A DNA stretch of 26,237 bases from a virus (IMGVR_UViG_3300033076_000563:1-26237), one strand, 5' to 3'. Counted from the stretch's first letter, positions 1 to 14,222 are shown. The notes: generated by a model not told the origin, from the letters alone. A program made the numbers and translations.

Positions 1-62
1 ATGTCGGAAAGCCGACAATAAGCTCCATCTATGGGGCTATCGTTAAATTGATTTAATCCAGG

Positions 63-90
63 GGAACCTTTCCAGGAACATACCCTCTAA
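63..90 (+). promoter_or_regulatory. sigmaE/AlgU-type (ECF) promoter
   Basis: GGAACCT (63-69), 16-nt spacer, TCTAA (86-90); fits the RpoE/AlgU consensus GAACTT-N16-TCnaA. Confidence 0.6.
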
Positions 91-172
91 TGGGTATCAG
101 GACAACAACGGGGACACACAAGCTAGGGTAGCAAGGGGCAGGTTAGCATCCTGCAAGATTCTCGGATTCTCG

Positions 173-200
173 GGAACCTTTCACCAGGTAGACTGTCAAA
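173..200 (+). promoter_or_regulatory. sigmaE/AlgU-type (ECF) promoter
   Basis: GGAACCT (173-179), 16-nt spacer, TCAAA (196-200, preceded by G). Confidence 0.65.
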
Positions 201-444
201 GGTAGTAGAAGGCAAGATTTCCCGACAATGGTCGGGCGCATGGTAGGCGGGAACATTCGCTGGCGGTCCATGCGGGCTCTTTAGGGCGGGTATCCGCCAA
301 GCAGGTTTGTACCTGCTACAACCTGGAGCAATACCGGTGCGTCCATTGGGGGGATTCCAGCCCCATGCGGGTTAAACGGATTTAACGCCGTTACCTGTAT
401 CGGGCTGGAATTCACCAGCAACCCTAACATAGGAGATTGCAACA

Positions 445-1206
445 ATGGACAACATGCATCAAAACGTGGAAGTCACGCCAATGGCGAAAGCCACGGCTCT
501 TTTCACCGGAATCAGCACTCCGGAAGGAGCATACACTGCGGGAGCGGCGGAAGGTAAGACTTTCGCGAATGCCTCGGAGCGGCTTCGCTCCGCCGTGATG
601 GTGGCGATGGATCAGCCCGAGAACATCCGGGACGAATTCTGCCGTGGTCTAGTGGACGGGCTAAAGTCCGGCGGTCCGACGGGCAAAGTGTACGCCAGCG
701 TGTTCAATCGTATCATCGCAAACATCAAGGGCGGGCACCTGGACAACGTGAAAAAAACCTTGAGCAATCCTGGCGGAATCACGGAACAGGTGAAATCCCT
801 GCCCCTGGGTGCCGACGGACAGCCGCGCAAGACACGACTGTCCAAGGCTACCACTGCCACTCCCAATGCAATTCCGGGAGAACAGCCCAAGGTCGGCCAG
901 AGCGAAAAGTTTGTGTTCAGCTTCGGCGCGTCCTACGTCGACGGAAAGATCAGCTATACGTCGCAGTTCAAGAAGGACGGGCTGTTGAAGGACGATCTGA
1001 TCGGGGCCGCAGTGGAGTTCCTCAAACTCCTCAAAGAGTCGGCCAGTCTGTCGCCGCGGACGATGGAAGCGATCTACACGGCCATCGCGGAAGAAGCGAT
1101 TGCGGTTAGCGATCACTTCGCCAGCCTCAAGGCGGAGCAGAAGGCAATCGAGGGCGAATCCGCGCCCGTCGAAGAAGTGACCGAGATGCACAAAGAGGCG
1201 GCGTAA
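445..1206 (+). CDS. Hypothetical early protein, 253 aa
   Basis: Long GC-rich ORF with an AGGAG ribosome-binding site upstream; no motif recognised. Confidence 0.85.
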   Translation: MDNMHQNVEVTPMAKATALFTGISTPEGAYTAGAAEGKTFANASERLRSAVMVAMDQPENIRDEFCRGLVDGLKSGGPTGKVYASVFNRIIANIKGGHLDNVKKTLSNPGGITEQVKSLPLGADGQPRKTRLSKATTATPNAIPGEQPKVGQSEKFVFSFGASYVDGKISYTSQFKKDGLLKDDLIGAAVEFLKLLKESASLSPRTMEAIYTAIAEEAIAVSDHFASLKAEQKAIEGESAPVEEVTEMHKEAA

Positions 1207-1299
1207 TGCCTCTAGTTGGAGTCTCCCCAGTAGACGCACCGGCGGTTATATCTGTTTAACGGTGCGGGAATGTCTCCCGCCGTTAACCGGAGAAATACC

Positions 1300-1575
1300 A
1301 TGATTCGCGGATTGTTTGTAGTGGAGGATAAGGTTCTGTCCTGGGATGTGTTGGATGCTGAAACGGTCAAGTACACCGTTCAGGACAGTCTCTCAGGCAT
1401 GATCGCAGAAGTTCAATGCTCGGCCCAGATTTTCGGGCTGGCGATGGCGATCTGCATCGGGGATTGGGATGCACTCCCGTTCGACGAGTCGGATATGGTG
1501 GTCGGAACGGTCAATGAAATCATGCCCAAGGATGAGAAGGGGCGGCCCATCATGGAACTTCGCTGGATTCCGTAG
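1300..1575 (+). CDS. Hypothetical early protein, about 91 aa
   Basis: ORF 1270..1575; GGAG precedes the ATG at 1300, taken as the likely start. Confidence 0.75.
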   Translation: MIRGLFVVEDKVLSWDVLDAETVKYTVQDSLSGMIAEVQCSAQIFGLAMAICIGDWDALPFDESDMVVGTVNEIMPKDEKGRPIMELRWIP

Positions 1576-1673
1576 CAATCGGACGGCGCCCATTGGTGAC
1601 AGTGGGCACCGTTAAACGGGTATAACCGATATGAAGCGGGAACGGCAATCTTCGATTGCTCACCCGCGAAGCG

Positions 1674-1701
1674 GGAACTTTTTCCAGGATAAGCTGTCTA
1701 A
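1674..1701 (+). promoter_or_regulatory. sigmaE/AlgU-type (ECF) promoter just upstream of the hammerhead
   Basis: GGAACTT (1674-1680), 16-nt spacer, TCTAA (1697-1701, preceded by G). Confidence 0.7.
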
Positions 1702-1720
1702 TCTTTATAGCGGGAAGAAT

Positions 1721-1779
1721 CGCGTTCTGATGAGCCCGATGGGGCGAAACGGGTTAAATCTGTATAACCCGTAAACGCG
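1721..1779 (+). ncRNA. Type I hammerhead ribozyme
   Basis: Stem I CGCGTT (1721-26)/AACGCG (1774-79); core CTGATGA (1727-33); stem II GCCC-gatg-GGGC (1734-45); GAAA (1746-49); stem III ACGGGTTA (1749-56)/TAACCCGT (1765-72); GUA cleavage triplet ending at 1773. Confidence 0.93.
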
Positions 1780-1860
1780 GAGCAGCCCAAGGGCATGGGT
1801 ACGGGTATGTGCGAATTAGCCATAGCACACAAAGCTCGCCGGAAGTGCGTAACCGGCATT

Positions 1861-2000
1861 TATACCGATTTAACCGGCTCCGCCGCACAACGAATCCGCA
1901 GGATATGTGGATTGTAATCGACGGCCCAATGTGTACCGGGCGTGAAATGCGGTAGCAATTGGGCGTCAGCCCGCGAAAGGGGGCCGGTTAAATGGGTATA
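1861..2000 (+). ncRNA. Putative structured RNA (multi-stem junction), family unknown
   Basis: Closing helix 1861-1881/1980-2000 (19 Watson-Crick, 1 G-U, 1 mismatch) encloses a hairpin at 1893-1913 and an interrupted hairpin at 1920-1967; no convincing ORF. Confidence 0.5.
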
Positions 2001-2204
2001 ATCGGATGTAACGCGTAGGAGAGCGCGAGGATAGGCGCTTTAGTAGCACCGGACTGATAAACCGATAAGCTACCGGATGAGGTTTGTCCGAAATGAAATC
2101 CGCGGAACCCCAACCACAGAAAAATGGGGCGTGTCCAAGCCGGGCACGGATAGGGTTATATCCGTATAATCTTATCCGTACCCGGTTAATCGGGTCAAAA
2201 ACTT

Positions 2205-2234
2205 GCCTGGATGGTGAAATTGGTAAACACAACG
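2205..2234 (+). pseudogene. 5' fragment of a canonical tRNA-Leu
   Basis: GCCTGGA-TG-GTG-AAATTGGTAAA-CAC-A-ACG gives the acceptor 5' strand, a Leu-type D arm and the start of an anticodon stem, then switches abruptly to AT-rich sequence. Confidence 0.7.
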
Positions 2235-2256
2235 TGTATTATATATGGTTTAATGG

Positions 2257-2285
2257 TTAACACAAATCGTTAAGTCATATATAAT
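2257..2285 (+). promoter_or_regulatory. sigma70-type promoter for tRNA-Leu/HNH
   Basis: TTAACA (2257-62), 17-nt spacer, TATAAT (2280-85), ending 9 nt before the tRNA. Confidence 0.6.
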
Positions 2286-2294
2286 ATAGTTAAT

Positions 2295-2380
2295 GCTCCC
2301 GTGATCTAGTGGCAAATAGGCACAGCCGGCGGACTTAAAATCCGTGATTTTTCCCGGTTCGACTCCGGGCGGGAGTACCA
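2295..2380 (+). tRNA. tRNA-Leu (anticodon UAA), atypical
   Basis: Acceptor GCTCCCG/CGGGAGT, discriminator A, encoded CCA; anticodon arm GCGGA-CT-TAA-AA-TCCGT; T arm CCCGG-TTCGACT-CCGGG; enlarged D region and only a 7-nt variable region. Confidence 0.85.
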
Positions 2381-2399
2381 AAATTAAAGGGATATAATA

Positions 2400-2819
2400 A
2401 TGAAAATATACGGACCATATTTAAGGAAAGATAAACGAAAGATGATGGTTATTGTACGAGATGATGGGAGTAAAACTTCCATATCTTATGCACGCCATCT
2501 AATGCAACAGCATTTAGGAAGGGTTTTAGAAAAACACGAGCATGTAGATCATATTAACGACGATCTAACAGACGATAGAATTGAGAATTTACAAATTCTA
2601 TCCCAAAAAGAAAACAATATAAAATCAGCTCGTAGAAATCCGAGAAAACTTTACAGCTTTTATTGCCCTTGTTGCGGCAAACCATCTGTAAAGTATTTAA
2701 ATGAAGTTAATAATAACCGAAAACGAGGAAGTGCTGGGCCATTTTGTTCCAGAAAATGTGCTGGTAAATTTATGTATAGGCGGGCCGTTAGCTCAGTTGG
2801 GAGAGCAGGCGACTCATAA
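2400..2819 (+). CDS. HNH homing endonuclease with C-terminal Cys motif
   Basis: HVDHINDDLTDDRIENLQIL..N is an HNH_3-type motif; CPCC...FCSRKC at the C terminus; free-standing between tRNA genes. Confidence 0.9.
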   Translation: MKIYGPYLRKDKRKMMVIVRDDGSKTSISYARHLMQQHLGRVLEKHEHVDHINDDLTDDRIENLQILSQKENNIKSARRNPRKLYSFYCPCCGKPSVKYLNEVNNNRKRGSAGPFCSRKCAGKFMYRRAVSSVGRAGDS

Positions 2820-2857
2820 TCGCTTGGTCGCTGGTTCAAGTCCAGCACGGCCCACCA
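2782..2857 (+). tRNA. tRNA-Ile2 (anticodon CAU, lysidine type)
   Basis: 76-nt cloverleaf with CCA; the body GGCGACTCATAATCGCTTGGTCGCTGGTTCAAGTCCAGCA is ileX-like rather than elongator or initiator Met-like. Confidence 0.9.
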
Positions 2858-2885
2858 ACCAATCATAGGAGATTTTAAGCAGTAG

Positions 2886-3134
2886 ATGAAAACACCAACA
2901 TTCGGACATAAACAACTTGTATACATTTACAATCTTGCAGTAGAAGAATGGCAAATGTATAGTCAATGTAGAGATTTGCCTGATCCTCATTTTGCAATGG
3001 ATCATTTTTCTAGGTGCGAAGCTTATGTTGATATGTTGGAAAACATAACCGTATTCCATACGGGTATGGGCTTAGATTTACGTCGAAACGGACTTAAGGA
3101 TAGATTAAACAGCTTTAACGGTTTTGCCAAGTGA
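2886..3134 (+). CDS. Hypothetical protein, 82 aa
   Basis: ORF following the tRNA; AGGAG upstream but rather distant. Confidence 0.65.
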   Translation: MKTPTFGHKQLVYIYNLAVEEWQMYSQCRDLPDPHFAMDHFSRCEAYVDMLENITVFHTGMGLDLRRNGLKDRLNSFNGFAK

Positions 3135-3167
3135 CCGGGAATACTTGGCGCTAGATGGAGATAATCC

Positions 3168-3359
3168 ATGAACAACGAACAGTTGTGTAAGCTAGTGCAG
3201 GCGGAATACCGGGCGGCTAAGATTCGCCTGAATTCCATTCACCTGGGAATGAAGCGATTCCCGCACCTGCGCGCCGATCAGGTTGTGGAGCGCGATCAAC
3301 GGATGGTTTCCAAATGGAGGAAACAACAGGAGGCAAAGGCAGAACATGGCATTCGGTAG
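3168..3359 (+). CDS. Hypothetical basic protein, 63 aa
   Basis: GGAG ribosome-binding site; overlaps the start of the next gene. Confidence 0.7.
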   Translation: MNNEQLCKLVQAEYRAAKIRLNSIHLGMKRFPHLRADQVVERDQRMVSKWRKQQEAKAEHGIR

Positions 3360-3570
3360 ATATACCGGGTACACTCCGGCCCAATGTCGCTCCGCGTATC
3401 CGGGCCAGGGCAAGGCATTTCGGAATCCCGAGCTTGTCGCAATGGATAAAGAGCGGGAATTCCGGGCAAATATCCAGGAGATTGCGGCTGTGGAGAAGTC
3501 TCTTGGGCTTGACAAACCCAAAAAGAAGGGGGTGGAATACCGGAGATACGGACGGGTTTACAAGAAGTAG
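3346..3570 (+). CDS. Hypothetical basic protein, about 74 aa (MAFGRYTGY...)
   Basis: In-frame ATG at 3346 within ORF 3283..3570; ends just before a terminator. Confidence 0.65.
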   Translation: MAFGRYTGYTPAQCRSAYPGQGKAFRNPELVAMDKEREFRANIQEIAAVEKSLGLDKPKKKGVEYRRYGRVYKK

Positions 3571-3588
3571 TTGCCATTAAATCTGTAT

Positions 3589-3622
3589 AACGGCTGCCCT
3601 TTATCGGGTGGCCGTTTTTTTT
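3589..3622 (+). terminator. Rho-independent terminator closing the early region
   Basis: AACGGCTGCCC/GGGTGGCCGTT stem followed by a long T run. Confidence 0.85.
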
Positions 3623-3632
3623 GGAGAAATAA

Positions 3633-3860
3633 ATGAAACAACTTACTGTCCAGGAAGCACTTGAGTTTTATAAATCTGAAAAATGGAAAACAATGTCACA
3701 AAAAGAAATTGCTCTTTTTCAAATGCAACAAGAGATGTGTTGTATTCCTTTTAGAGTTTTTCACAAAGCTGTTGAGGATACTGTGGGACATGCTGTTCTC
3801 ACACATGAGTTACATAAAAATCACGACATTCTTTTGAAAGAAATAAAGGAAGCGAAATGA
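3633..3860 (+). CDS. Hypothetical phage protein, 75 aa
   Basis: GGAG ribosome-binding site; ATGA coupling to the next gene. Confidence 0.8.
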   Translation: MKQLTVQEALEFYKSEKWKTMSQKEIALFQMQQEMCCIPFRVFHKAVEDTVGHAVLTHELHKNHDILLKEIKEAK

Positions 3861-4066
3861 ACATCGGGGCAACTATGGTTGTGGATTTTTATCCGGAATA
3901 TGGACTTCCAACACAATACTATCATACCACATGGGGAAAAGAGACACGCGAAGAAGCATTAAATAGAATTAAAAATCAAGAATACGGCTATGCTGTTCGC
4001 GATATTAGTATTATTCCTGATTTTGATCCTAATTCTTCAATTCCGCAGGTAGGAAGCTATGTTTGA
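3857..4066 (+). CDS. Hypothetical protein, 69 aa
   Basis: AAGGA ribosome-binding site and ATGA overlap with the previous gene. Confidence 0.7.
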   Translation: MNIGATMVVDFYPEYGLPTQYYHTTWGKETREEALNRIKNQEYGYAVRDISIIPDFDPNSSIPQVGSYV

Positions 4067-4104
4067 ATCCTTTCCGAAGATTCCAAGGCTTGAGAACGAG
4101 AGCA

Positions 4105-4737
4105 ATGAAACTAGCCGTTCTTGATTACAATACAAAGGGATATAATGTACTCAAAGGTTTTTCATTCGTTGCGTGTAGGGACTTGGAAGATGTTGAACGA
4201 GCCAAGCCCGATGCCATTCTATTTGCTGGTGGTGTGGACATTAATCCTGCTATATATCATTCCGTAGCGTCTAGTTACACAGAACGTCCGGATAAGAAAC
4301 GAGATGAATTTGAACTTGAGGTAATTAAACGCTATCCAAAACTCCCAAAGATATGTATCTGCCGAGGAATGCAACTAATGTGGGCCGCGGCTGGTGGGAA
4401 ACTCATTCAGCATGTCGATGGACACCTAGTATCTCATATGATTGACACCTACGATAGTGGCTGCATTCCGAGTAATAGTGCCCACCATCAAATGGTTTTA
4501 GTTCCAGAAAAAGATACTTTATGTGAAGTGCTGGCAAAAACAAGCCATAAGCTATCCGACCCGTATAAAGGATATTTATTGGAGGATGATTTAGTTATAA
4601 AAGATGTTGATGAAGTGGAGTCTATTTACATTCCTTCTTTTAACGCTTTTTGTATACAAGGACACCCAGAATGGCTACCGTTCAATCATCCGCTGAATCT
4701 GTGGGTAAACAAGCAAATAAAAAAATATCTTATTTAA
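4105..4737 (+). CDS. Class I glutamine amidotransferase / peptidase C26 (gamma-glutamyl hydrolase-like)
   Basis: GGVDINP, nucleophile ICRGMQ, HHQ and QGHPE motifs. Start is the ATG at 4105 or the TTG at 4063. Confidence 0.92.
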   Translation: MKLAVLDYNTKGYNVLKGFSFVACRDLEDVERAKPDAILFAGGVDINPAIYHSVASSYTERPDKKRDEFELEVIKRYPKLPKICICRGMQLMWAAAGGKLIQHVDGHLVSHMIDTYDSGCIPSNSAHHQMVLVPEKDTLCEVLAKTSHKLSDPYKGYLLEDDLVIKDVDEVESIYIPSFNAFCIQGHPEWLPFNHPLNLWVNKQIKKYLI

Positions 4738-5051
4738 ATCTAGATAGTGAACTTCCTGAGCATAATTTACTATTTGACTATGAGGAAATGCCAAATACAT
4801 GCTCAATGGCGGAATTAACTTTACAGCAGATTTCATGGTTACATGATTTCGATATAAATAAAATAGATTTTACACATTATGAATTAAGAAAAAGTAATCA
4901 CAAATATAAGGCTATTCTTTATAATTGCGATATGCCTCTGGATCATAGTATTCATGGGTTTTTTATCCGTTCAGGATTTACTCGTGTATTTGACTACTAC
5001 GGAAACGAGAAAAAACGTGTTTATGTTTATATTAGGAGAACTGGAAAATGA
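4650..5051 (+). CDS. Hypothetical protein (start uncertain)
   Basis: Fills the gap in the operon; ATGA coupling to the next gene. Confidence 0.55.
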   Translation: MYTRTPRMATVQSSAESVGKQANKKISYLNLDSELPEHNLLFDYEEMPNTCSMAELTLQQISWLHDFDINKIDFTHYELRKSNHKYKAILYNCDMPLDHSIHGFFIRSGFTRVFDYYGNEKKRVYVYIRRTGK

Positions 5052-5890
5052 AATTAAACGCTGTCGGTGCTGATGTTGAACTGTTTCTGCAAGATGAATA
5101 CGGAAATCCGATTACTGCGATTCGTAAGTTCGGAGGAACAAAACAGCGTCCCAAACAGATGTTTGGAATGCCTCCTGGATTCTTCATTCAGGAAGATAAT
5201 GTAATGGCGGAGTTCAACATACCGCCAGTAAATAATCCGGACGAATTCCACAACAATATTAAAAGTGCCGTAAACTGGATTGAAAATGTAGCGGCAGCAA
5301 AGGATTTACACATTAACATCGCATCGTTAATGCGATTTAAGCTCAAACAGTTGCAATCCACGCAAGCACAGCATGTAGGATGCGAGCCAGACTATAATGT
5401 TTGGACAATGTCAGAGAATCCTCGGGTAAATTCAGATAGTCTTAAAGATGTTCGTACTTGTGGCGGACATATACACATCACTACCGATGATCCTGATTTG
5501 TCTGTTAACGATACGTTAAATCTAATTAAGGCTTGTGATTTCACTATCGGAATTGCTTCTGTGTTTTGGGAATCTGATGCTAGTCGTAAGGAGCATGGTT
5601 ACGGTAAAGCTGGATCATTCCGATTCAAACAGTATGGACCGTCTATGTGGAAAGGGGTGGAATATCGTACCCCCTCGAATTATTGGGTAGCTGGCGAGTT
5701 TCCAAAACTAATTTTCCGTGAAGTGGAATCCGCAATTGCTTTAGCATCGAACAAAAATTTCCCGGATGTGGCTGAGCATTTTAAACTGGGAGTCATTAAC
5801 GCAATTAATAATCACATGAAAGACACAGCATTCTACATTCGTAAACAAATGCTTGGAATCTTCCCTAACGAATATTGTGCCAATATTTAA
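5048..5890 (+). CDS. phiEco32-like COOH.NH2 ligase type 2 (glutamine synthetase-like fold)
   Basis: GADVELFL, QEDNVMAEFNIPP, GCEPDYN, GGHIH, YGKAGSFR and GVEYRTPSNYW motifs. Confidence 0.92.
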   Translation: MKLNAVGADVELFLQDEYGNPITAIRKFGGTKQRPKQMFGMPPGFFIQEDNVMAEFNIPPVNNPDEFHNNIKSAVNWIENVAAAKDLHINIASLMRFKLKQLQSTQAQHVGCEPDYNVWTMSENPRVNSDSLKDVRTCGGHIHITTDDPDLSVNDTLNLIKACDFTIGIASVFWESDASRKEHGYGKAGSFRFKQYGPSMWKGVEYRTPSNYWVAGEFPKLIFREVESAIALASNKNFPDVAEHFKLGVINAINNHMKDTAFYIRKQMLGIFPNEYCANI

Positions 5891-5892
5891 TT

Positions 5893-6693
5893 ATGCAAAC
5901 TGCCGCTGAGTTTTTTACAAAGCAAGGGTTATTTGGAGTAAATGATTTAAATAAGTGGTGCACACATGGTTATGCCTATATAACGCCAATTGATAAAGAA
6001 AAAGTATTTAAATATTTATCAAACACACTATCAATAAAAAGACTAGAAGATGTTTTTGGAAATTCAGGCGCCTATGTATATGTCGGGGGTCATTTTGCTC
6101 ACAAAAGTGACCATTTAATAGTAACTAGTGTGAATTTTTTAGTCGGTGACTATAACATAGTTGGATGTGAGGTTAACGTTTTAGATTTTGAATGGATGTT
6201 TAATAAATATCCAGATAGCGGTTACTGGACATATAGTAATACTAAAGACCCCACAAAAGAAAGTATTGTTCTAATTAAGAGGACGGGGCATCGTAAATTT
6301 AAGAAAATTATAGAGGGGAACTATAATCTTCATTTCTTAAATATAACTGTTCCATATTTTAAAGCAATGCTAAATAGGAGTACTGTTGATTATGTGGGTG
6401 CGTTAGCTGATACTTATTACGCACATGTAGATCAAAAATTTCTAGATTATGAAAAATTCTTGATCTTTAATAAGGGTTTCCAATCAAACTCCACATTATC
6501 TGGAATTAAAGATAAGTATTTACATGTAGTCAACAAGGACTGGCTAATTACTCTAGGGCTAATGGGAACAACTAAATATGATTTATATTATAATGAAATT
6601 TTGGCCGCACATTTAGATGAGAACTTTAATCCTGTATTAATTAACATTCCATCATTAGCACAAGAGATTTCTGATCTTCCTAAAGGAATTTAA
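5893..6693 (+). CDS. Hypothetical protein within the amidoligase cluster
   Basis: About 266-aa ORF, in-frame ATG right after the upstream stop. Confidence 0.8.
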   Translation: MQTAAEFFTKQGLFGVNDLNKWCTHGYAYITPIDKEKVFKYLSNTLSIKRLEDVFGNSGAYVYVGGHFAHKSDHLIVTSVNFLVGDYNIVGCEVNVLDFEWMFNKYPDSGYWTYSNTKDPTKESIVLIKRTGHRKFKKIIEGNYNLHFLNITVPYFKAMLNRSTVDYVGALADTYYAHVDQKFLDYEKFLIFNKGFQSNSTLSGIKDKYLHVVNKDWLITLGLMGTTKYDLYYNEILAAHLDENFNPVLINIPSLAQEISDLPKGI

Positions 6694-6696
6694 AAG

Positions 6697-7863
6697 ATGA
6701 AGAAGTTTCGTGATATTTATAGTTTTACGCCAATACAAATAAAAAGAGTTACCGAGAATCTAAAATCTACAAAGTTAATCCATAGGTTTGTTACGTACAA
6801 ACCAAAGAACTTTGGTATTGTTGGTGTAGAGATTGAAGTTGAAGGAGTTCCTTGTAAAATAGGAAGTCCAGAAGACTATAAACCTATACATGCACCTGTT
6901 CCATATGCATGGGCAGGAAAAGAGGATGGAAGTCTTCGCAACTATGGTATTGAATATGTATCAGTTCCTATTCGTAATTGGGAATTACCAGTAGCTTTAG
7001 AATTATTAGCTCAACATCTTGAGGCTTGTCCAACACATGATTTCTCACCTCGCTGCGGTACTCATTTCCATGTAAATGTTCGAGATTTCACTGATGAAGA
7101 TTTAACATACTTCTTGATGTATTATATGATTTATGAGAAGTTCTTTTTTCATCTGGCTGGAAAGGAGCGCCTTAACAGTTATCATTGCGCCCCATTAACT
7201 CAGGTATATATTCGTGAGTATTTATTAGAGATTCTAGGTATTCCACAGAATGATGATGCATATGCTCACGCAGATAAGTTCTCTGGGTGGCATAAATATA
7301 CATCTCTAAACTTATCCTCTATCCCTCGATTTGGTACATTAGAAGTACGACTACTTCCAGGGGGTTATGATTGGAATAAATTATGTGAATTCGTGGACTT
7401 AATTTTACAACTTAGAAATTATATTATCAAAACGGATAAAAAAACTCTACGAGAAGATATTATTAACCTCAACAGTTACAGTAATTATTATACTTTAACT
7501 CTTAAAGTATTTAACGATTTATTTGCAGCATTACCGAAGTTAGATTATCATGCAACAATGAGAGATGCTGTATGTATAAGCAAAACATTATGTCATATTA
7601 TCGACGAAACTAACAAAGACAAAACACATGCTATAATCACAATTACTCAATTAAAAGGTTCGTATATTGAAGAAAAGTCCGTAGCATACCAGAGATATCT
7701 ACAAAAATGCAAAGCATTTGGGGCCGTTCAAAAACCTCAGAAACCTAAGAAAGTAATGACTACTGATGAAATGTTAAAGGCATTCTCAACGTCATCATCG
7801 TTTACAATTGATGAATATTATTCAAATCCAATTGATGTTGGAACTCCTGCGGGGAACGAATAA
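6697..7863 (+). CDS. Putative amidoligase (Amidoligase_2-type)
   Basis: GVEIEVE, EDGSLR, GIEYVS, CGTHFHVNV, KYTSLNL and GTLEVR motifs. Confidence 0.9.
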   Translation: MKKFRDIYSFTPIQIKRVTENLKSTKLIHRFVTYKPKNFGIVGVEIEVEGVPCKIGSPEDYKPIHAPVPYAWAGKEDGSLRNYGIEYVSVPIRNWELPVALELLAQHLEACPTHDFSPRCGTHFHVNVRDFTDEDLTYFLMYYMIYEKFFFHLAGKERLNSYHCAPLTQVYIREYLLEILGIPQNDDAYAHADKFSGWHKYTSLNLSSIPRFGTLEVRLLPGGYDWNKLCEFVDLILQLRNYIIKTDKKTLREDIINLNSYSNYYTLTLKVFNDLFAALPKLDYHATMRDAVCISKTLCHIIDETNKDKTHAIITITQLKGSYIEEKSVAYQRYLQKCKAFGAVQKPQKPKKVMTTDEMLKAFSTSSSFTIDEYYSNPIDVGTPAGNE

Positions 7864-7866
7864 ATC

Positions 7867-9567
7867 ATGTGTGGAATTGTTGGAGTAATTAATCATAGTA
7901 ACACAAAAGATTTAACCGGAAACCAATTAACCATATTTGAGGAACTTTTATTTGCTAATGAGCTTCGAGGGAAAGACAGTACTGGCATCATGTTAGGTAC
8001 AGACGCAGGGCGTGTACGTATCTTGAAACATGCACAACCGGCAAGTCGTTTTCTTAAAGAGGAACATTACCTTAAATGGTTTGATAAATATGTAGTTAAA
8101 AATAAAAATCATTGTATTTTTGGACATAATCGTCTAGCTACCGTAGGTAAGGTAACATCTAAAAATGCACATCCCTTTAATGAAGGGAATATCACCTTGA
8201 TGCACAATGGCTCGCATAAATCTGTATTCACAGAATTTAAAGATGATATTCCCGATAGTATTAAGGCAGATGTGGATAGTCATGCTGTAGCATATCTAAT
8301 TGATAAATATGGATTAGAGGAATATTTAAAGAAAAGTAAGACACTGCCGGAGGCTGCTTTTGTTTTCTTCGACGCAAAAGATAAATCTATTAACATCTAT
8401 AGGAATTATGCACGACCGTTAAATTTCTTTAAGGATTATCGTGGTGTATATTACATTGCATCCGAAGAACAGATGCTTAAATGGATTTTAGGAAGGAATA
8501 AAATTACTGGTAAGCTTGACGTAGAACAATTCAAGCCTTATCATCTATATAAAATGGGAATAGATGCAGATGAATTTACGGTAACAGAAATTAAGCATAC
8601 ATATAGTAATACTAATAATTATTATGATTCCGATTATGCTGGAAATCATGGCTTTGGTTTTTCCAGTGGATATCACCACAAATCTGCCAGCAATGGTGAT
8701 AATTATAAGTGGCGTAGTCCAGTAACTAAAGTAGAAGAAATTGGATGTAAAATAGCTAAAGATTTAGGAGAAATTATCCTAATCTTAGATGGCTCCTCTT
8801 ATATGAAGTGTGCACCAAACAACCAAGTTATGTATGTATCTTGGAATGAGTACAATAATATTTCACACGAACACAAGTCGTATATTGAGCCCGCAACCGT
8901 AGACGGACGTGAGGGAGTAAAGGAAGCAAAAGAAAAGAATGCTTATGTATTCAAGGAATGTAATAGCGTACCTTACGAATTTACACCCTATGGATTTATA
9001 AGAATTCTTCGTAATACTGAGAAAATTGAAACTATTTCTGAGCATTATTTCAAGAAAGGATTGCTTGAAAGTAAGCCTCTAGTTATTGTTAATGAGAAGC
9101 CTGCACAAGTAAAACAGGAGGGTTCCAAAAGAAGCACCAAATATCAAATGTTGGATGCGTTACATTTTAAACCTCCCGTTGATAAAACATATAATAGAGG
9201 GGATTTCATAGAATTCTTTGTGGAATCCCTGAATGTGATTGATAAGGAGGAATCTATTGTAAGAATTATAGGAACTAATCCAGAACTTGATAGCAATAAT
9301 TACGTTAATAATATTGTAGTGTCTATTAACTTAAAGAAGATGTTCGGTGAGGCTATGTCAGAGCATCAATTTCAGGAGATATTTCCAGCAGACTCCTTTA
9401 TGAGAGCTAAAATCTTATCTATTGTTGAGAGTATTCCCGATGAGAAGTCTCCAGGAAGGGAATACAAGATGTTTATTGACCCTACATCTATAGAGTATTT
9501 AGATGTTACAGAAGTTAAACCTGGAACAGATGGTTTTTGTTCCGTTACAGACTTGTTCACGAGGTAA
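7867..9567 (+). CDS. Class II (Ntn) glutamine amidotransferase with a long C-terminal extension
   Basis: N-terminal MCGIVG, then RGKDSTG, GHNRLAT, NAHPF, HNG and VDS motifs. Confidence 0.93.
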   Translation: MCGIVGVINHSNTKDLTGNQLTIFEELLFANELRGKDSTGIMLGTDAGRVRILKHAQPASRFLKEEHYLKWFDKYVVKNKNHCIFGHNRLATVGKVTSKNAHPFNEGNITLMHNGSHKSVFTEFKDDIPDSIKADVDSHAVAYLIDKYGLEEYLKKSKTLPEAAFVFFDAKDKSINIYRNYARPLNFFKDYRGVYYIASEEQMLKWILGRNKITGKLDVEQFKPYHLYKMGIDADEFTVTEIKHTYSNTNNYYDSDYAGNHGFGFSSGYHHKSASNGDNYKWRSPVTKVEEIGCKIAKDLGEIILILDGSSYMKCAPNNQVMYVSWNEYNNISHEHKSYIEPATVDGREGVKEAKEKNAYVFKECNSVPYEFTPYGFIRILRNTEKIETISEHYFKKGLLESKPLVIVNEKPAQVKQEGSKRSTKYQMLDALHFKPPVDKTYNRGDFIEFFVESLNVIDKEESIVRIIGTNPELDSNNYVNNIVVSINLKKMFGEAMSEHQFQEIFPADSFMRAKILSIVESIPDEKSPGREYKMFIDPTSIEYLDVTEVKPGTDGFCSVTDLFTR

Positions 9568-9569
9568 AT

Positions 9570-10265
9570 ATGCAAATTCAGATAATTAGCCATACGTCAC
9601 AGCCTTCCGAATCGGTAGAACGATTGGAGAAGGAATTAAACGTAGATAAGAAAGTAGTTATCCTTAACTACGGCAAGTGTGTATCAAAAATTAAGCAATA
9701 CGAGTTCTTTAAAACAGAACTTATTCCTCATCCGGAATGGACCACGTCATTAGGCAGTGCTATGCACTATCTAATTAATGGTGAGTGGAAGAAACTAGTA
9801 GCACGGCGTAGGATTAAGAGTCAAACTGGGAATGGAACAATGATCTTTACCGATGCATATTTAATGGAGAAAGAAGATGAATTAAATCCATTTAAAGTAT
9901 TTACCAAATACATCCCAAAGAAACGAGAGTTTCGTGTTAACATCTTCAAAGATACGATTGTTAACATTCGAGAGAAAGTGCGTAAAGCTGGAGCTACTGG
10001 TCTTACAGAAATTCGTAGCCAAAGTAATGGATATACTACTGTAAAGCTACAGAGCCCAGCACCAGCAGGTATTGAGGAGCTTGCATTACGTGCCTCTAAG
10101 GTATCATCTTCCGACTTCAAAGGTGTAGATATTGGCTATAACCAACTAAAGAATCTGTTGTTTGTCCTTGAGGTTAACAGTGGTCCTTCGATTGAGGGAT
10201 CGTCTGTTAAAGAGTATGCACAAGCTATTACTGAATTTGTTAAGGAGGTATCTAATAATGGTTAA
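9570..10265 (+). CDS. ATP-grasp enzyme (RimK-like)
   Basis: FTKYIPKKREFRV, GVDI and VLEVNSGPS motifs; GAGG precedes the ATG at 9570. Confidence 0.9.
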   Translation: MQIQIISHTSQPSESVERLEKELNVDKKVVILNYGKCVSKIKQYEFFKTELIPHPEWTTSLGSAMHYLINGEWKKLVARRRIKSQTGNGTMIFTDAYLMEKEDELNPFKVFTKYIPKKREFRVNIFKDTIVNIREKVRKAGATGLTEIRSQSNGYTTVKLQSPAPAGIEELALRASKVSSSDFKGVDIGYNQLKNLLFVLEVNSGPSIEGSSVKEYAQAITEFVKEVSNNG

Positions 10266-10944
10266 AGTTAACTTCGCAAAAGATAAGTATTACTCCGAGA
10301 TTTTTCAGATCACGGATGTTAAATTCTCTTTTGTTCACAAAGAGAACGACTCCACTTTTACGGAACTTTTTTGTCGTGCTAAGTGTCGTGATTTCCTCGG
10401 GGATGTAATCTATGGTGTTAAATACTCTATGCCTACTACCATATATGGATTTAAATGGGAGGGGGATAAACACACAATTGATCCGGATGCGTGTCGTTTG
10501 CTTGTACAATTTCCAGATAAATTGACAAAAAATATTTTCCTTTCTCAGAAAGATGAGTGGGGGATTCTTTGGAATATTATTGATGACATACAAGATAAAC
10601 CTCTATGTATCATCGTTGAGGCTGAACCGAAGTGGCAGGAACGTGTCTATATGATCTCACTTCTAACACTATTAATCAAGCTTTCTACATATAATGAGGA
10701 AGATCGTCCTCTTGCAGGGAATGAACTTACTTATATAAACCACTTACCAAATCTTCGTAAAATTATAGATAACCTGGATAAAATTCCCTATGTGAATGCT
10801 TCCGGGTACGAAAATGAAACTAAAGTAAGTATTGTTAAAATTCATGATCAATCTGGAGTAGTTTCTATTTTTGGTAATGGTCCATATATTAAAAATAATA
10901 ATGTTTATCGTGACTATGCTAAAGAGTTAGGTCTAGTAGCATGA
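10258..10944 (+). CDS. Hypothetical protein adjoining the amidoligase cluster
   Basis: Strong TAAGGAGG ribosome-binding site before the ATG at 10258; contains a CRDFLGD motif. Confidence 0.85.
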   Translation: MVKVNFAKDKYYSEIFQITDVKFSFVHKENDSTFTELFCRAKCRDFLGDVIYGVKYSMPTTIYGFKWEGDKHTIDPDACRLLVQFPDKLTKNIFLSQKDEWGILWNIIDDIQDKPLCIIVEAEPKWQERVYMISLLTLLIKLSTYNEEDRPLAGNELTYINHLPNLRKIIDNLDKIPYVNASGYENETKVSIVKIHDQSGVVSIFGNGPYIKNNNVYRDYAKELGLVA

Positions 10945-11150
10945 GTAGATGTAAAAGCTGCGATGTAATACTAACCGAGTCCGATCTTCGTCGAAAAGCA
11001 CCGATCTCCGGCGAATATATGGATTTATGTAAACGATGTAGTGATGTGGTAATTGCTGATTTATCGGAGGATATGGACGAAGATCACTACAAATCAAATG
11101 AGTTTGGGTGTATTCACTATGAAACCGAAGATAGAAGCGAGGATATATGA
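10941..11150 (+). CDS. Small Zn-finger-like protein with acidic tail
   Basis: CKSC...CKRC; ATGA coupling with the upstream gene. Confidence 0.75.
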   Translation: MSRCKSCDVILTESDLRRKAPISGEYMDLCKRCSDVVIADLSEDMDEDHYKSNEFGCIHYETEDRSEDI

Positions 11151-11418
11151 CAAACAAGGGCGACTCGTTGGACGTGGAAATAACTCTTACACTAAATCTC
11201 ACCCATTGCAAGCACGATATGCCGAACTCGTGGGACAATCCCAGCGAGTATTTCTTCACGCGGAAATTCAAGCAATCATACGGGCCAGAGGACGGGGATA
11301 TAAAATCATTGTTGAGAGACGCAATAAAGAAGGTTGCCTCAGAAATGCAAAACCATGCCCAATCTGTGAACTTGCAATTAAAGAAGCCGGAATCAAGTAC
11401 GTCGAATACAGCGTATAG
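11119..11418 (+). CDS. Cytidine/dCMP deaminase-superfamily protein
   Basis: GNN, HAE and PCPIC zinc-binding motifs; ends AGIKYVEYS. Confidence 0.85.
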   Translation: MKPKIEARIYDKQGRLVGRGNNSYTKSHPLQARYAELVGQSQRVFLHAEIQAIIRARGRGYKIIVERRNKEGCLRNAKPCPICELAIKEAGIKYVEYSV

Positions 11419-11512
11419 CGATCCGGAACATGGGTTTAACAATCCAGTTAGTATTGAGAAGATTGGAGCAGAAGTATACAACAAAGCTTTTAAATATAAC
11501 GAGGAGTGGTGA
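11147..11512 (+). CDS. Possible overprinted ORF overlapping the deaminase
   Basis: 121 aa; ATGA-coupled to the upstream stop, GAGGA upstream, and ends next to the following gene start. Confidence 0.3.
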   Translation: MTNKGDSLDVEITLTLNLTHCKHDMPNSWDNPSEYFFTRKFKQSYGPEDGDIKSLLRDAIKKVASEMQNHAQSVNLQLKKPESSTSNTAYSDPEHGFNNPVSIEKIGAEVYNKAFKYNEEW

Positions 11513-11514
11513 TT

Positions 11515-11715
11515 ATGAAATTTCCAGAGGGCTCGTATAACCAAAGACGTGCACAAGTTGAAAAAATATTGGAAGATTTAGGTATTGAATTGCAAATAGG
11601 TGGATGCGGTTGTTGTGGTTCCCCTTGGGTAGAGTTTAAATATAAAGGGGAACTTTTATTAGATGATGATAATGTATCATTGGAAACCAACAGTGTACAA
11701 AATCTATCACTTTGA
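11515..11715 (+). CDS. Hypothetical protein with GCGCCG motif
   Basis: GAGGAG ribosome-binding site. Confidence 0.75.
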   Translation: MKFPEGSYNQRRAQVEKILEDLGIELQIGGCGCCGSPWVEFKYKGELLLDDDNVSLETNSVQNLSL

Positions 11716-11736
11716 CCCACTGAAAAGGAGTTATAA

Positions 11737-11994
11737 ATGGACTGTAAAGACGGCGTTGTGGTTGCTGAACCATGTGTGGTTCCTACCTTATCCAAAGAGG
11801 AGTGCATGTTCTACGGAGACCCATTCTATGACACATGGGTCGGCTCCGGATACGGAGAATCCTACGCCACCATCCTACCCCATCAAATGATGAAGCTGCA
11901 TAAGGAGGGGAAAGCATACTATGATTCTAATCTGGACGTATTTTATGTTGATAGTGTGCGGTTTAATTTCGTCGGCGGAGGAGAGCAACGATGA
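11737..11994 (+). CDS. Hypothetical protein, 85 aa
   Basis: AAGGAG ribosome-binding site. Confidence 0.75.
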   Translation: MDCKDGVVVAEPCVVPTLSKEECMFYGDPFYDTWVGSGYGESYATILPHQMMKLHKEGKAYYDSNLDVFYVDSVRFNFVGGGEQR

Positions 11995-12314
11995 AAGTTC
12001 CATACATTGACTGTGGTGATGGTTGGCTTAAACTTATAGACCCCCTCATTGAAGAATGCAATAAACGTGGAGTGCATATTGCACAGATTAAAGAGAAGTT
12101 TGGTACTCTAAGATTCTATATTCATGGTGGTGATGAGGAGTTATATAATTTAATTGATAAAGCGGAAATGGAATCAGCCCATATTTGTGAAGTATGTGGT
12201 GATCCTGGTGAGTTCACTAGTTATGGATGGATTAAAACTCTGTGCCCACTCCATGCAAAGGAACGAGAGGCTCACTGGAAAGCAAGACAAGAAAGGATGA
12301 AACCACAACTATGA
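11991..12314 (+). CDS. Conserved phage hypothetical protein
   Basis: GW...QIKEKFGTLRFY...CEVCG...GWIKTLC pattern recalled from many phages; function unknown. Confidence 0.8.
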   Translation: MKVPYIDCGDGWLKLIDPLIEECNKRGVHIAQIKEKFGTLRFYIHGGDEELYNLIDKAEMESAHICEVCGDPGEFTSYGWIKTLCPLHAKEREAHWKARQERMKPQL

Positions 12315-12529
12315 AACTCTATGACGTACCGGGTAACAGTTTCGTTCGTATTCTAGATGAGAACACAAAAGTTCCCATCGTATCAAAAGAAACTCCGAAC
12401 GGAACTATTCTAAAGTTCCATCATGTTGACGGTATGTATAGTTATTGTCGAACAAAAGACGGTAACGTCATACATCCAGCAGCGTGGACAGAGGTGGAAA
12501 TTGTAGAGGGATTTGATGAACGATCTTGA
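12311..12529 (+). CDS. Hypothetical protein (MKLYDVP...)
   Basis: ATGA-coupled start at 12311. Confidence 0.75.
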   Translation: MKLYDVPGNSFVRILDENTKVPIVSKETPNGTILKFHHVDGMYSYCRTKDGNVIHPAAWTEVEIVEGFDERS

Positions 12530-12764
12530 GTATTATCATCAAGCATTAAAGGACGACCCTTCTGGTAATGTTTGTTCTTTTTGTGGTAAAGATAATGATT
12601 TTTGGGATGACTGTGGGTGGTTTTATATTAAACCTACTGTTACCATTGTAATAGAAGATGAGATAATTGTTTCACAGTTAGAGTTAGGGCCTTGTTGTAA
12701 GGCGTGTTGGAAAGGACCATTAGGACAGTCTCATATAAAAAGATATGGATTGAGTGAACGATGA
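12516..12764 (+). CDS. Hypothetical Cys-rich protein
   Basis: GAGG ribosome-binding site; CSFC...CKAC. Confidence 0.7.
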   Translation: MNDLEYYHQALKDDPSGNVCSFCGKDNDFWDDCGWFYIKPTVTIVIEDEIIVSQLELGPCCKACWKGPLGQSHIKRYGLSER

Positions 12765-13516
12765 ATGATGTACTATTCTTACACCACGAACCTTGTCCTC
12801 AATGTGGTTCCCGTGATAACTTAGGAGTATGGAGTGATGGACACAAATGGTGTTTTGGATGTAACTACTACGAGCCTGGGGGCGTTGAGAGCATTCGTTC
12901 GAGAATGGAGCAACAATCTGATCGAACATCCATTAGAACAGGAGTATCTTTACCATCTGACTATACAACCAGTATCCCAAAGCAAGGAAGAGATTGGTTA
13001 AAAAAGTATTACTTGACAGATAAAGAGATATATGATAATAGGATTGGTTGGTCCCAAACCGGGTGGTTTCTAACAAAGAAAGAGCAACAGATTGCTCCCC
13101 TTTTGATTCTACCCGTGTTTGGTGACAGCCAACTGCTTATGTGGCAAGGTCGCAATTTCGGCACAGTTGGGCCCAAGTACCTTACCTTCGGAAATAAAGC
13201 CGTATACGACGTTGTACGCGGTTCTAGAGGCATATCTGATTCGATATGTATCACCGAAGATAAGGTATCGGCTATCAAGGTGGGTCGATATGTGGATTCT
13301 ATGCCTGCCTATGGATCATTTCTCAACATGGAACAACTCATACATCTGTCTAAGGGGTATGATAACTTGCTTATTTGGTTGGATCATGATAAACTTAAGG
13401 AGTCACATAGGCTTGCGAAGAGGGCTGGATTTATGTTCAAGAATGTACGAGTGATTGATAGTCACTATGATCCGAAGGATTATATGGACGATGAGATTAA
13501 GGAGTATTTGCAATGA
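12761..13516 (+). CDS. DNA primase (T7 gp4-like Zn ribbon plus TOPRIM)
   Basis: CPQCGSRDNL...DGHKWCFGC, KY, ITEDKVSA, WLDHD and DPKD motifs. Confidence 0.92.
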   Translation: MNDVLFLHHEPCPQCGSRDNLGVWSDGHKWCFGCNYYEPGGVESIRSRMEQQSDRTSIRTGVSLPSDYTTSIPKQGRDWLKKYYLTDKEIYDNRIGWSQTGWFLTKKEQQIAPLLILPVFGDSQLLMWQGRNFGTVGPKYLTFGNKAVYDVVRGSRGISDSICITEDKVSAIKVGRYVDSMPAYGSFLNMEQLIHLSKGYDNLLIWLDHDKLKESHRLAKRAGFMFKNVRVIDSHYDPKDYMDDEIKEYLQ

Positions 13517-13719
13517 TTCAGACAGATAAATTTAGAGATACAAACGAAAGGTTTATATTTCAAGGAGGTAGTATGTTCGCTAAAAATATTGCAAATGAAA
13601 TAGACTATTTACGTTCCCGCGTCGCGGAACTGGAGGCGGCGCTGGAGGAGGCGCTGCGGCGCTACCGGGCGCTGCTGCCGGCGTGCAGGCCGAGGAGCTG
13701 CGCCGAGGAGGGTGCGTAA
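13513..13719 (+). CDS. Hypothetical chimeric protein with coiled-coil tail
   Basis: ATGA-coupled; AT-rich 5' half and GC-rich 3' half (LRSRVAELEAALE). Confidence 0.65.
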   Translation: MIQTDKFRDTNERFIFQGGSMFAKNIANEIDYLRSRVAELEAALEEALRRYRALLPACRPRSCAEEGA

Positions 13720-13915
13720 TGGCTTACCGTGATTACATCATCTGCCCCGAATGTGAATGCAAACTGATCTACGATGGCAGCGACGCTATTCGCGAAAACC
13801 TGGAGGAGCGGTGGGGAGACCCAAAGTTGTCCACGTACACGGTAAGCATTCTGTGTCCAGACTGCGTTGGGAAACTCCGCGCCCGCGTGGCGGAACTGGA
13901 GGAGGTGCTGGAGGA
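13616..13915 (+). repeat. 34-bp imperfect direct repeat (13616-13649 and 13882-13915)
   Basis: cccgcgtcgcggaactggaggcggcgctggagga versus cccgcgtggcggaactggaggaggtgctggagga, 31 of 34 identical. Confidence 0.85.
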
Positions 13916-14000
13916 TGTCCGCGACGATCTTGGAGAGGGTCTGAACATCAGTCCGGCCGCGAAAGATGCCGTCTTGACCGCACTGGAGACGAAGCCATGA
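13719..14000 (+). CDS. Hypothetical Zn-finger/coiled-coil protein, GC-rich
   Basis: GGAGG ribosome-binding site, TAATG coupling; CPEC...CPDC followed by LRARVAELE. Confidence 0.8.
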   Translation: MAYRDYIICPECECKLIYDGSDAIRENLEERWGDPKLSTYTVSILCPDCVGKLRARVAELEEVLEDVRDDLGEGLNISPAAKDAVLTALETKP

Positions 14001-14197: not shown

Positions 14198-14222
14198 CAA
14201 TGATAACTAAAGAATATATACT
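14194..14222 (+). promoter_or_regulatory. Near-consensus sigma70 promoter overlapping the helicase start
   Basis: TTGACA (14194-99), 17-nt spacer, TATACT (14217-22). Confidence 0.7.

Follow-up and report, generated by a model that had tools for sequence, protein, structure and literature searches.

The virus contig IMGVR_UViG_3300033076_000563:1-26237 is a single 26.2-kb stretch of DNA (26,237 nucleotides), the whole of which was analysed and is called the window here. Between positions 1674 and 2857 its early region carries, in order on the plus strand, an extracytoplasmic function (ECF)-type promoter motif, a hammerhead ribozyme, a long leader and tRNA genes. An earlier sequence-only reading had proposed these elements as one non-coding unit, from which the hammerhead and RNase P would release a defined RNA. 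Their order and strand are as that reading gave them. Given that an HNH endonuclease gene precedes and overlaps the last tRNA gene, the span is not wholly non-coding. The features of the locus and its immediate surroundings are as follows.

63-90 and 173-200, plus strand: sigma-E-type promoter motifs P1 and P2, ahead of the first open reading frame (ORF1)
1663-1675, plus strand: terminator-like hairpin, its T-run overlapping the -35 element of P3
1674-1701, plus strand: sigma-E (ECF)-type promoter motif P3, GGAACTT-16 nt-TCTAA, with a predicted +1 near 1707
1720-1780, plus strand: type I hammerhead with an intact core, predicted to cut after A1773
1774-2294, plus strand: non-coding leader from the cut site to the first full acceptor stem, 521 nt (~617 nt in a relative, X6)
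1860-1881/1980-2001, plus strand: predicted long-range helix of 21-22 bp, formed from two copies of a palindrome
2087-2187, plus strand: block without differences in X6 (over 2087-2184), its 3' end a 22-bp hairpin with palindrome copy 2156-2169 as the cap
2205-2233, plus strand: 29-nt 5' fragment of a tRNA-Leu (acceptor strand and D arm), with a shorter remnant in the X6 relative
2257-2285, plus strand: sigma-70-like promoter TTAACA-17-TATAAT (11/12) in an AT-rich hairpin at 2231-2291
2295-2380, plus strand: aberrant tRNA-Leu(UAA)-like gene with a 7-bp acceptor stem, T arm, CCA end and 7-nt anticodon loop
2400-2819, plus strand: HNH endonuclease gene (139 amino acids), overlapping the next tRNA gene and not aligned in the X6 contig
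2782-2857, plus strand: canonical tRNA-Ile2(CAU), labelled tRNA-Met by ARAGORN, with 92% identity to Escherichia coli tRNA-Ile
3589-3623, plus strand: intrinsic-terminator-like hairpin and T-run, with the next strong terminator-like site on this strand at 3589-3616, the likely end of the early unit

The promoter motif GGAACYT-16-TCWAA occurs three times in the window (at 63, 173 and 1674), always on the plus strand, against 0.01 copies expected, and none of 100 shuffled windows reached three copies. The E. coli sigma-E consensus has the -35 element GGAACTTTT, a preferred 16-nt spacer and a 5/6-nt discriminator (PMC1312014). P3 carries the full GGAACTTTT -35 element and the 16-nt spacer, and its -10 element, TCTAA, differs by one change from the TCAAA-like E. 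coli consensus. Given this fit and the discriminator length, a start near 1707 is a fair prediction, in agreement with the sequence-only reading. P1-P3 may be read by host RpoE or by a phage sigma factor; none was found among the ORFs scanned (19 and 27) in a window that is probably half a genome. An envelope-stress sigma factor reading a phage early region would be unusual. There is no strong sigma-70 site before ORF1. The site at 2257-2285, directly 5' of the first tRNA-like gene, is the sole strong one in 1-4200, where the other five of six matches score 9 and are no more frequent than in shuffles. CCAGG is present in the spacer of each of P1, P2 and P3, and Alcaligenes phage QDWS535 has a sigma-E-like site resembling P3 before a late-strand gene (record L041, 48693-48720).

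About 20 nt from the predicted ECF-type start lies the hammerhead, with the cut site at 1773 that had been claimed for it. Stem I (1720-1726/1774-1780, open), stem II (1734-1745) and stem III (1749-1772) have 7, 4 and 8 bp, and the core elements CUGAUGA (1727-1733), GAAA (1746-1749) and the GUA triplet (1771-1773) are canonical at all positions. A palindrome copy (1754-1767) sits inside stem III. A relaxed hammerhead descriptor was run on the window, shuffles, phages LUZ24 and PaP3, five closer GenBank records and record L002; it recovered the window hammerhead as well as those of LUZ24 (L008, 2415) and PaP3 (L001, 44106, minus strand), with no match in 100 shuffled windows. In Rfam the hammerhead falls below gathering (29.2 of 48.5 bits), and the RAGATH-1 model aligns in type I topology at 19.8 of 56.3 bits. 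Because Rfam also missed the assayed PaP3 ribozyme, the sub-gathering score weakens the subfamily assignment only. We consider self-cleavage after 1773 likely. The descriptor and Rfam found no second ribozyme in the window. Near the end of the PaP3 genome (L001 near 45444, minus strand) there is a second hammerhead-like core that failed the relaxed descriptor; it is listed as a potential type III in a primer table (PMC3088659).

Of ten sequencing runs containing matching sequence, four were aligned to the window, and among these X6 alone spans the region, in one 3347-nt contig. Compared with the window, this relative differs at 103 of 869 positions (plus 23 gaps) over 763-1631, at 7 of 148 over P3 and the hammerhead (1637-1784; binomial P 0.0025), at 13 of 170 (plus 19 gaps) over 1832-2001, and at none of 98 over either 2087-2184 or the tRNA-Leu stretch 2286-2383 (binomial P 4e-6 each). 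Thus P3, the hammerhead, two leader blocks and the tRNA-Leu are kept better than the neighbouring coding DNA. The stretches separating these blocks differ in length: X6 has 92 nt in place of 47, 200 in place of 85, and 18 in place of 101 (the AT-rich hairpin with its sigma-70-like site). The unit from P3 to the tRNA-Leu therefore appears, in this comparison, to be under purifying selection at variable length (~617 nt of leader in X6). Since X6 lacks the internal sigma-70-like promoter, P3 is the sole promoter visible for its tRNA, which may depend on read-through from P3. Co-conservation, a test proposed with the sequence-only reading, thus extends in one relative from the promoter to the first tRNA and stops short of tRNA-Ile2: the X6 contig bridges 2383 to 3251 via unknown letters, neither the HNH gene nor tRNA-Ile2 is seen there, and 60-323 (P1 and P2) is not aligned. 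Runs X2 and X4, a seawater metagenome and a marine metagenome, contain near-identical pieces of the window. No RNA data set was listed among the matching runs, which carries no information on expression.

Searches for further homologues returned nothing usable: no homologue by blastn of 1640-2210 and 1-460 against GenBank phages; none of ORF1 or its alignment in the IMG/VR, JGI and GTDB collections; in four IMG/VR DNA-pattern searches no match in two, 5 matches with no hammerhead in another, and 23 matches of which none was related in the last; and in a JGI contig pattern search 31 matches, none with a hammerhead core. A tRNA-Ile2 pattern used as a host clue had no match in GTDB.

Downstream of the leader, the tRNA genes foreseen by the sequence-only reading are of unequal quality. 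Only tRNA-Ile2(CAU) is canonical; judged from its Ile2-type body and CAU anticodon, it reads ATA. The element at 2205 is a fragment: sequence starting at 2204 has its matches in tRNA-Leu annotations of phiKZ-type records, and the window has only two T-arm motifs (2356 and 2833), neither T arm nor acceptor partner belonging to the fragment. A split or intron-containing tRNA starting from it was rejected, there being no acceptor partner beside any T arm. The tRNA-Leu(UAA)-like gene at 2295 has 8 extra nt before the anticodon arm, with the anticodon loop beginning at nt 40 rather than 32, and no long variable arm, its variable region being 7 nt and unpaired. Default ARAGORN misses it, relaxed ARAGORN misreads its anticodon, and Rfam gives it 26.8 bits, below gathering. 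With this insertion the gene looks as though two tRNA 5' halves had been fused, but it does not vary in the X6 relative. An acceptor stem and T arm should suffice as an RNase P substrate. Because 2205 is a fragment only, the first RNase P site would be at 2295 and the leader would measure 521 nt; the defined product of ~430 nt that had been proposed is not supported, the less so as two internal segments are replaced in X6. No theta-type (hepatitis delta virus (HDV)-like) ribozyme was matched after either tRNA. The anticodons of tRNA-Leu(UAA) and tRNA-Ile2 read TTA and ATA. In ORF1 and ORF2 together TTA accounts for 0 of 24 Leu codons and ATA for 0 of 21 Ile codons, with GC at third codon positions (GC3) of 0.72; in 17 downstream genes the counts are 125 of 414 and 76 of 364, with GC3 0.33.

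The leader had been described as hairpin-rich over about 430 nt, which is true of its total and not of all its parts. The fold of 1774-2205 has a z-score of -5.6 (0/100 shuffles as good). Two helices that contain palindrome copies account for this strength: 1860-2001 (z -6.4) and 2138-2187 (z -7.0). The other segments, ~310 of the 430 nt, are near shuffles (1781-1859, z 0.0; 1882-1979, z -1.5; 2002-2137, z -0.7). Other non-coding parts of the early region fold comparably (207-444, z -5.2; 1576-1673, z -4.4). The 5' arm of the helix 1860-2001 can instead pair with the hammerhead at 1740-1767 (-27.1 vs -42.0 kcal/mol). A predicted pairing of 6 bp (p 0.91) joins the new 5' end, at 1776-1781, to 2099-2104 of the invariant block. 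The plus frames of the leader hold only ORFs of up to 58 amino acids, none supported. No Rfam family matched the leader, and the models of the large tRNA-linked phage non-coding RNAs GOLLD and ROOL gave no match in 150-2300 at E up to 10. The segment 1947-2004 is similar to 1567-1628, where the ORF2 cassette has its 3' end.

The palindrome TTAWA-N4-TWTAA occurs 15 times in the window against 0.44 expected, and most copies lie in the first 3.65 kb.

43, 372, 1246, 1612, 1754, 1860, 1988, 2156, 2384, 3105 and 3577 (start positions): eleven copies of TTAWA-N4-TWTAA, vs 0.013 expected in the first 3.65 kb
334-359/1217-1242, plus strand: helix of 25-28 bp enclosing ORF1 (445-1206, an orphan protein), free of the motif
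1243-1265/1606-1628, plus strand: helix of 21-23 bp enclosing ORF2 (1300-1575), with two palindrome copies

The palindromes had been taken as a mark of the leader RNA, which does not fit their distribution through the entire 3.6 kb, roughly one per intergenic gap: only 3 of the 11 early copies are located in the leader, from cut site to tRNA, with a fourth in hammerhead stem III. Nine stems of at least 18 bp are listed on the plus strand and 3 on the minus strand of 1-3700, and none on the plus strand of 3701-14000. In six hand-picked, top-ranking arm pairs, G.U pairs outnumber A.C pairs 15 to 3 on the plus strand (p 0.004). The confinement of long stems to the early region, their strand bias and the G.U excess point to selection on RNA. 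Copies 43, 2384 and 3105 barely fold (0 to -0.5 kcal/mol), and in X6 both half-sites of copy 372 are preserved, around a different 4-nt spacer and between altered flanks. The three unfoldable copies, the fixed spacer and the differing RNA shapes (hairpin vs long-range) point to a DNA site. We consider it an evenly balanced proposition, drawn from these sequence patterns, that a dimeric protein binds the palindrome as a DNA site and that the motif has been reused for pairing in RNA; that it is purely an RNA-processing signal is possible and somewhat less probable. At 21-28 bp the helices reach the length of RNase III sites (~22 bp). The E. coli proximal-box rules call for G-C at position 1 and A-U or U-A at positions 2 and 4 (PMC1540722), and the palindrome-centred register, the only one checked and by hand, breaks them (A-U at 1; G.U or G-C/C-G at 4).

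As to what might bind the motif, the spacing of integron attC, Zur, CtrA, Xer and IHF sites does not fit, and the 5-4-5 geometry of CRP/FNR-family boxes is a possible lead. No support was found for ORF1 as the binder: it has no family, a low-confidence model without structural match and no likeness to LUZ24 gp2. One true relative of ORF1 exists among 1.84 billion representatives, and a search for ORF2 homologues gave no usable match. The ORF1 mRNA folds with z -2.6; because the primase gene does likewise (z -2.0), no obelisk-like claim is made for it. The ORF1 and ORF2 helices join 5' and 3' untranslated regions, abut at 1242/1243 and recall rRNA processing stems. In unrelated IMG/VR phages a palindrome GTTATA-N4-TATAAC lies near promoter-like sites, a hint of operators and no proof: in L047, L050, L053 and L066, and in L057, L061, L063 and L064, pairs ~130 nt apart flank sigma-70-like promoters, in one of the two groups just after a tRNA cluster. 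The first early proteins ORF1 (445-1206), P0002, LUZ24 gp2 (L008, 1208-1762) and the first ORF of L002 (832-1363) end in EAA or LAA, which resembles a C-terminal ClpXP degron; ORF1 and gp2 are not detectably related.

The window as a whole is the early and replication arm of a podophage of Zobellviridae/LUZ24-like type, judged from its gene set (glutamine amidotransferase, COOH.NH2 ligase, amidoligase, primase, DnaB-like helicase, split DNA polymerase and class II ribonucleotide reductase) and its best GenBank matches. Those of the helicase are MW202697, Methylophilales phages MEP401/402 and Alcaligenes phage QDWS535 (41-47% identity); MEP402 is filed under Zobellviridae, and the replication/amidoligase module is common to LUZ24, PaP3 and phiEco32 types. 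A relative known by its proteins only (63-65% identity) lies on a 53-kb JGI contig, so that about half of this phage's genome is probably outside the window. Three genomes of the lineage were found, none of them cultured; this rarity limits the reach of the case. GC content is 52-60% over the first 2 kb and 30-45% over most of the remainder. A GC-rich (61%) patch at 13513-14000, with two small ORFs between primase and helicase in AT-rich surroundings, is likely a recent insertion. Where the helicase gene starts, a very AT-rich patch (14200-14300) is a candidate replication origin, and such a patch also precedes the helicase of QDWS535 (L041 near 31750).

On a narrow balance of probability, and reasoning from motifs and one relative, we suspect that the locus serves ribozyme 5' processing of an early tRNA-supplying transcript and forms the early region's second transcription unit. 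In this scenario, host polymerase would start at the sigma-E-type P3, and the hammerhead would cut away the first ~67 bases, leaving an RNA with a 5'-OH end. This RNA would carry the structured leader into the tRNA genes, transcription running through 2295 and ending at the terminator near 3620, and RNase P would free the tRNAs, which would supply the UUA and AUA codons of the AT-rich phage genes. A 5'-OH end is a poor entry point for 5'-monophosphate-dependent decay, as understood from RNase E and RppH, and for that reason a longer RNA life may be expected. The leader is most likely a segment for processing and control, of the same build as the other parts of the early region, and not one discrete RNA, because its strong helices are made of the same 14-bp palindrome that frames ORF2 and punctuates 3.6 kb.

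Several observations count against tRNA supply by 5' processing. The conservation evidence is one contig of one run, in which tRNA-Ile2 is not seen. The tRNA-Leu is structurally abnormal and may not be charged, and having its own 11/12 sigma-70-like site in the window it need not depend on P3. The TTA/ATA contrast follows the general difference in GC3. At each of six transcript lengths the active hammerhead fold is less stable than the predicted minimum, by 2.6-4.9 kcal/mol, inspection identified no tertiary contact between loop II and stem I, and the relaxed descriptor found no hammerhead in the five closer GenBank records (one as 50/65 kb) or in L002. In addition, 51 invariant nt (2087-2137) without a strong fold are unexplained by a mere leader role.

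Those 51 nt, together with the purifying selection on the leader blocks, the predicted pairing of the new 5' end with the invariant block and the absence of an Rfam family, would suit a discrete, stable 5'-OH RNA of ~520 nt (or a core ending near 2190) with its own function, such as a host-protein decoy. We regard this as rather unlikely, given that the RNA differs in length by ~100 nt in X6, where segments of 47 and 85 nt are replaced by 92 and 200 nt, that for ~310 of 430 nt folding is at the level of shuffles, that the same architecture surrounds ORF1 and ORF2, and that the 5'-end pairing is just 6 bp. Its 22-bp helices would also invite RNase III cuts, and a CsrA/Rsm sponge was rejected for want of enrichment in GGA motifs (11 vs 10.7 expected). 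The decoy, anti-defence or scaffold roles put forward in the sequence-only reading are neither favoured nor disfavoured by these data. Nor would such an RNA be expected to circularise, as the idea of RtcB-type ligation implied. RtcB needs a 2',3'-cyclic or 3'-phosphate end. The hammerhead gives a 5'-OH, which RtcB accepts (PMC4787814), but the 3' end that RNase P makes on the leader is a 3'-OH (PMC6765202), and the Rfam and descriptor searches returned a single ribozyme where a second would be required. No ligase is present among the 19 and 27 ORFs scanned, in probably half a genome, and tandem prophage hammerheads gave no circles in Perreault et al. (PMC3088659), so that we hold circularisation to be highly improbable.

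The locus could instead consist of two adjacent modules, in which P3, hammerhead and leader are an emptied or RNA-only gene cassette of a plastic early region and the tRNAs are later, HNH-driven arrivals with their own promoter. The likeness of 1947-2004 to the ORF2 cassette 3' end (1567-1628), two X6 joints at the edges of palindrome copies (2001 and 2383), and the tRNA-Leu remnant, HNH gene and sigma-70-like site, which suggest repeated insertion, are consistent with this, as are the promoter-plus-stem-loop (PeSL) cassettes that drive shuffling in T4-type phages (PMC2839356). We think it unlikely, since X6, which lacks the internal promoter, still has hammerhead, leader blocks and tRNA in one unit and no terminator-like site was found on the plus strand between 1707 and 2295. 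Also unlikely is a joint reading in which a host envelope-stress sigma factor gates the early programme, the palindrome-made helices of a ribozyme-matured 5'-OH RNA of ~520 nt titrate a host protein (a double-stranded RNA nuclease, or a repressor binding the same 14-bp DNA site), pairings among hammerhead 1740-1767, 1860-1887 and 1980-2001 would swap strands as a switch on the ribozyme, and a non-canonical tRNA-Leu is made from the same transcript.

What most hammerheads of bacteria and phages do has yet to be established (PMC6765202). The locus offers a compact test, with a promoter that any RpoE-bearing laboratory strain should be able to read, a ribozyme only 20 nt downstream of the start, and the tRNA as read-out. 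Three of its features are unusual: sigma-E-type promoters at the head of the early region of a phage, a conserved tRNA-Leu carrying an insertion of 8 nt, and a palindrome that is both a fixed-spacing DNA motif and an RNA pairing module around whole genes.

The sequence-only reading knew of no described phage module with this layout. A hammerhead pattern scan of 4 of the 64 parts of IMG/VR gave 130 loci, 72 after removal of duplicates and of loci with <600 nt downstream. Same-strand tRNAs lie within 1.2 kb downstream of 2 of 54 full hammerheads, vs 0 of 18 incomplete matches, and a sigma-E-like site within 130 nt upstream of none of the 54. Hammerheads before tRNAs thus recur at a few per cent, and it is the ECF promoter that distinguishes this locus. 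In locus L111 (minus strand, core at 1201 of the reversed locus) a type I hammerhead would cut at or beside the 5' end of a tRNA-Tyr gene, where by its position it may stand in for RNase P; in locus L082 a hammerhead lies 110 nt ahead of three tRNAs. A literature search, mostly outside subscription journals, found neither a unit of ECF promoter, hammerhead, leader and tRNA nor sigma-E-driven phage early promoters.

Among known systems, RNase III processing stems occur in T7 early RNA and rRNA operons. Like them, the window has helices of 21-27 bp between or around genes of an early transcript; unlike them, its motif-centred register breaks the E. coli rules (PMC1540722) and its hairpin copies centre in the tetraloop. 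The T4-type PeSL cassettes (PMC2839356) share repeated intergenic stem-loops and a plastic early region of orphan genes. They combine sigma-70 promoters with local terminator hairpins, whereas the window palindromes find their partners at distances of 100-900 nt and occur independently of sigma-70 sites, there being one strong sigma-70-like site in 1-4200 rather than one per stem-loop. Gammaproteobacterial sigma-E promoters (PMC1312014) have the same GGAACTT -35 element, 16-nt spacer and TCWAA -10 element, but here three copies head the early region of a lytic-type phage. Theta ribozymes of gut phages (PMC10879173) are likewise self-cleaving and in cis with phage tRNA genes, but they have an HDV-like fold at the tRNA 3' trailer, and a hammerhead 521 nt upstream can make neither tRNA end.

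A functional precedent is the HHphage hammerhead of haloviruses HF1/HF2, whose cut sets the 5' end of an early polycistronic transcript, as is predicted here; in HF2 that end was mapped within 3 nt of the cut (PMC3088659). There, however, a helicase gene follows 13 nt after the ribozyme, the host is archaeal, and there is no tRNA or long leader. Further precedents are LUZ24 and PaP3, whose type I hammerheads between early genes are listed in the supplement of Perreault et al. (2011), the PaP3 ribozyme having been assayed as active (PMC3088659). Passages on LUZ24 transcript maps (PMC10914365) do not mention ribozymes. These phages share with the window the type I topology, an early-strand site and a related replication and amidoligase module. 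Their ribozymes lie between two early genes under sigma-70 promoters, with tRNAs elsewhere, whereas that of the window is close to an ECF-type start, with a non-coding leader and tRNAs behind it.

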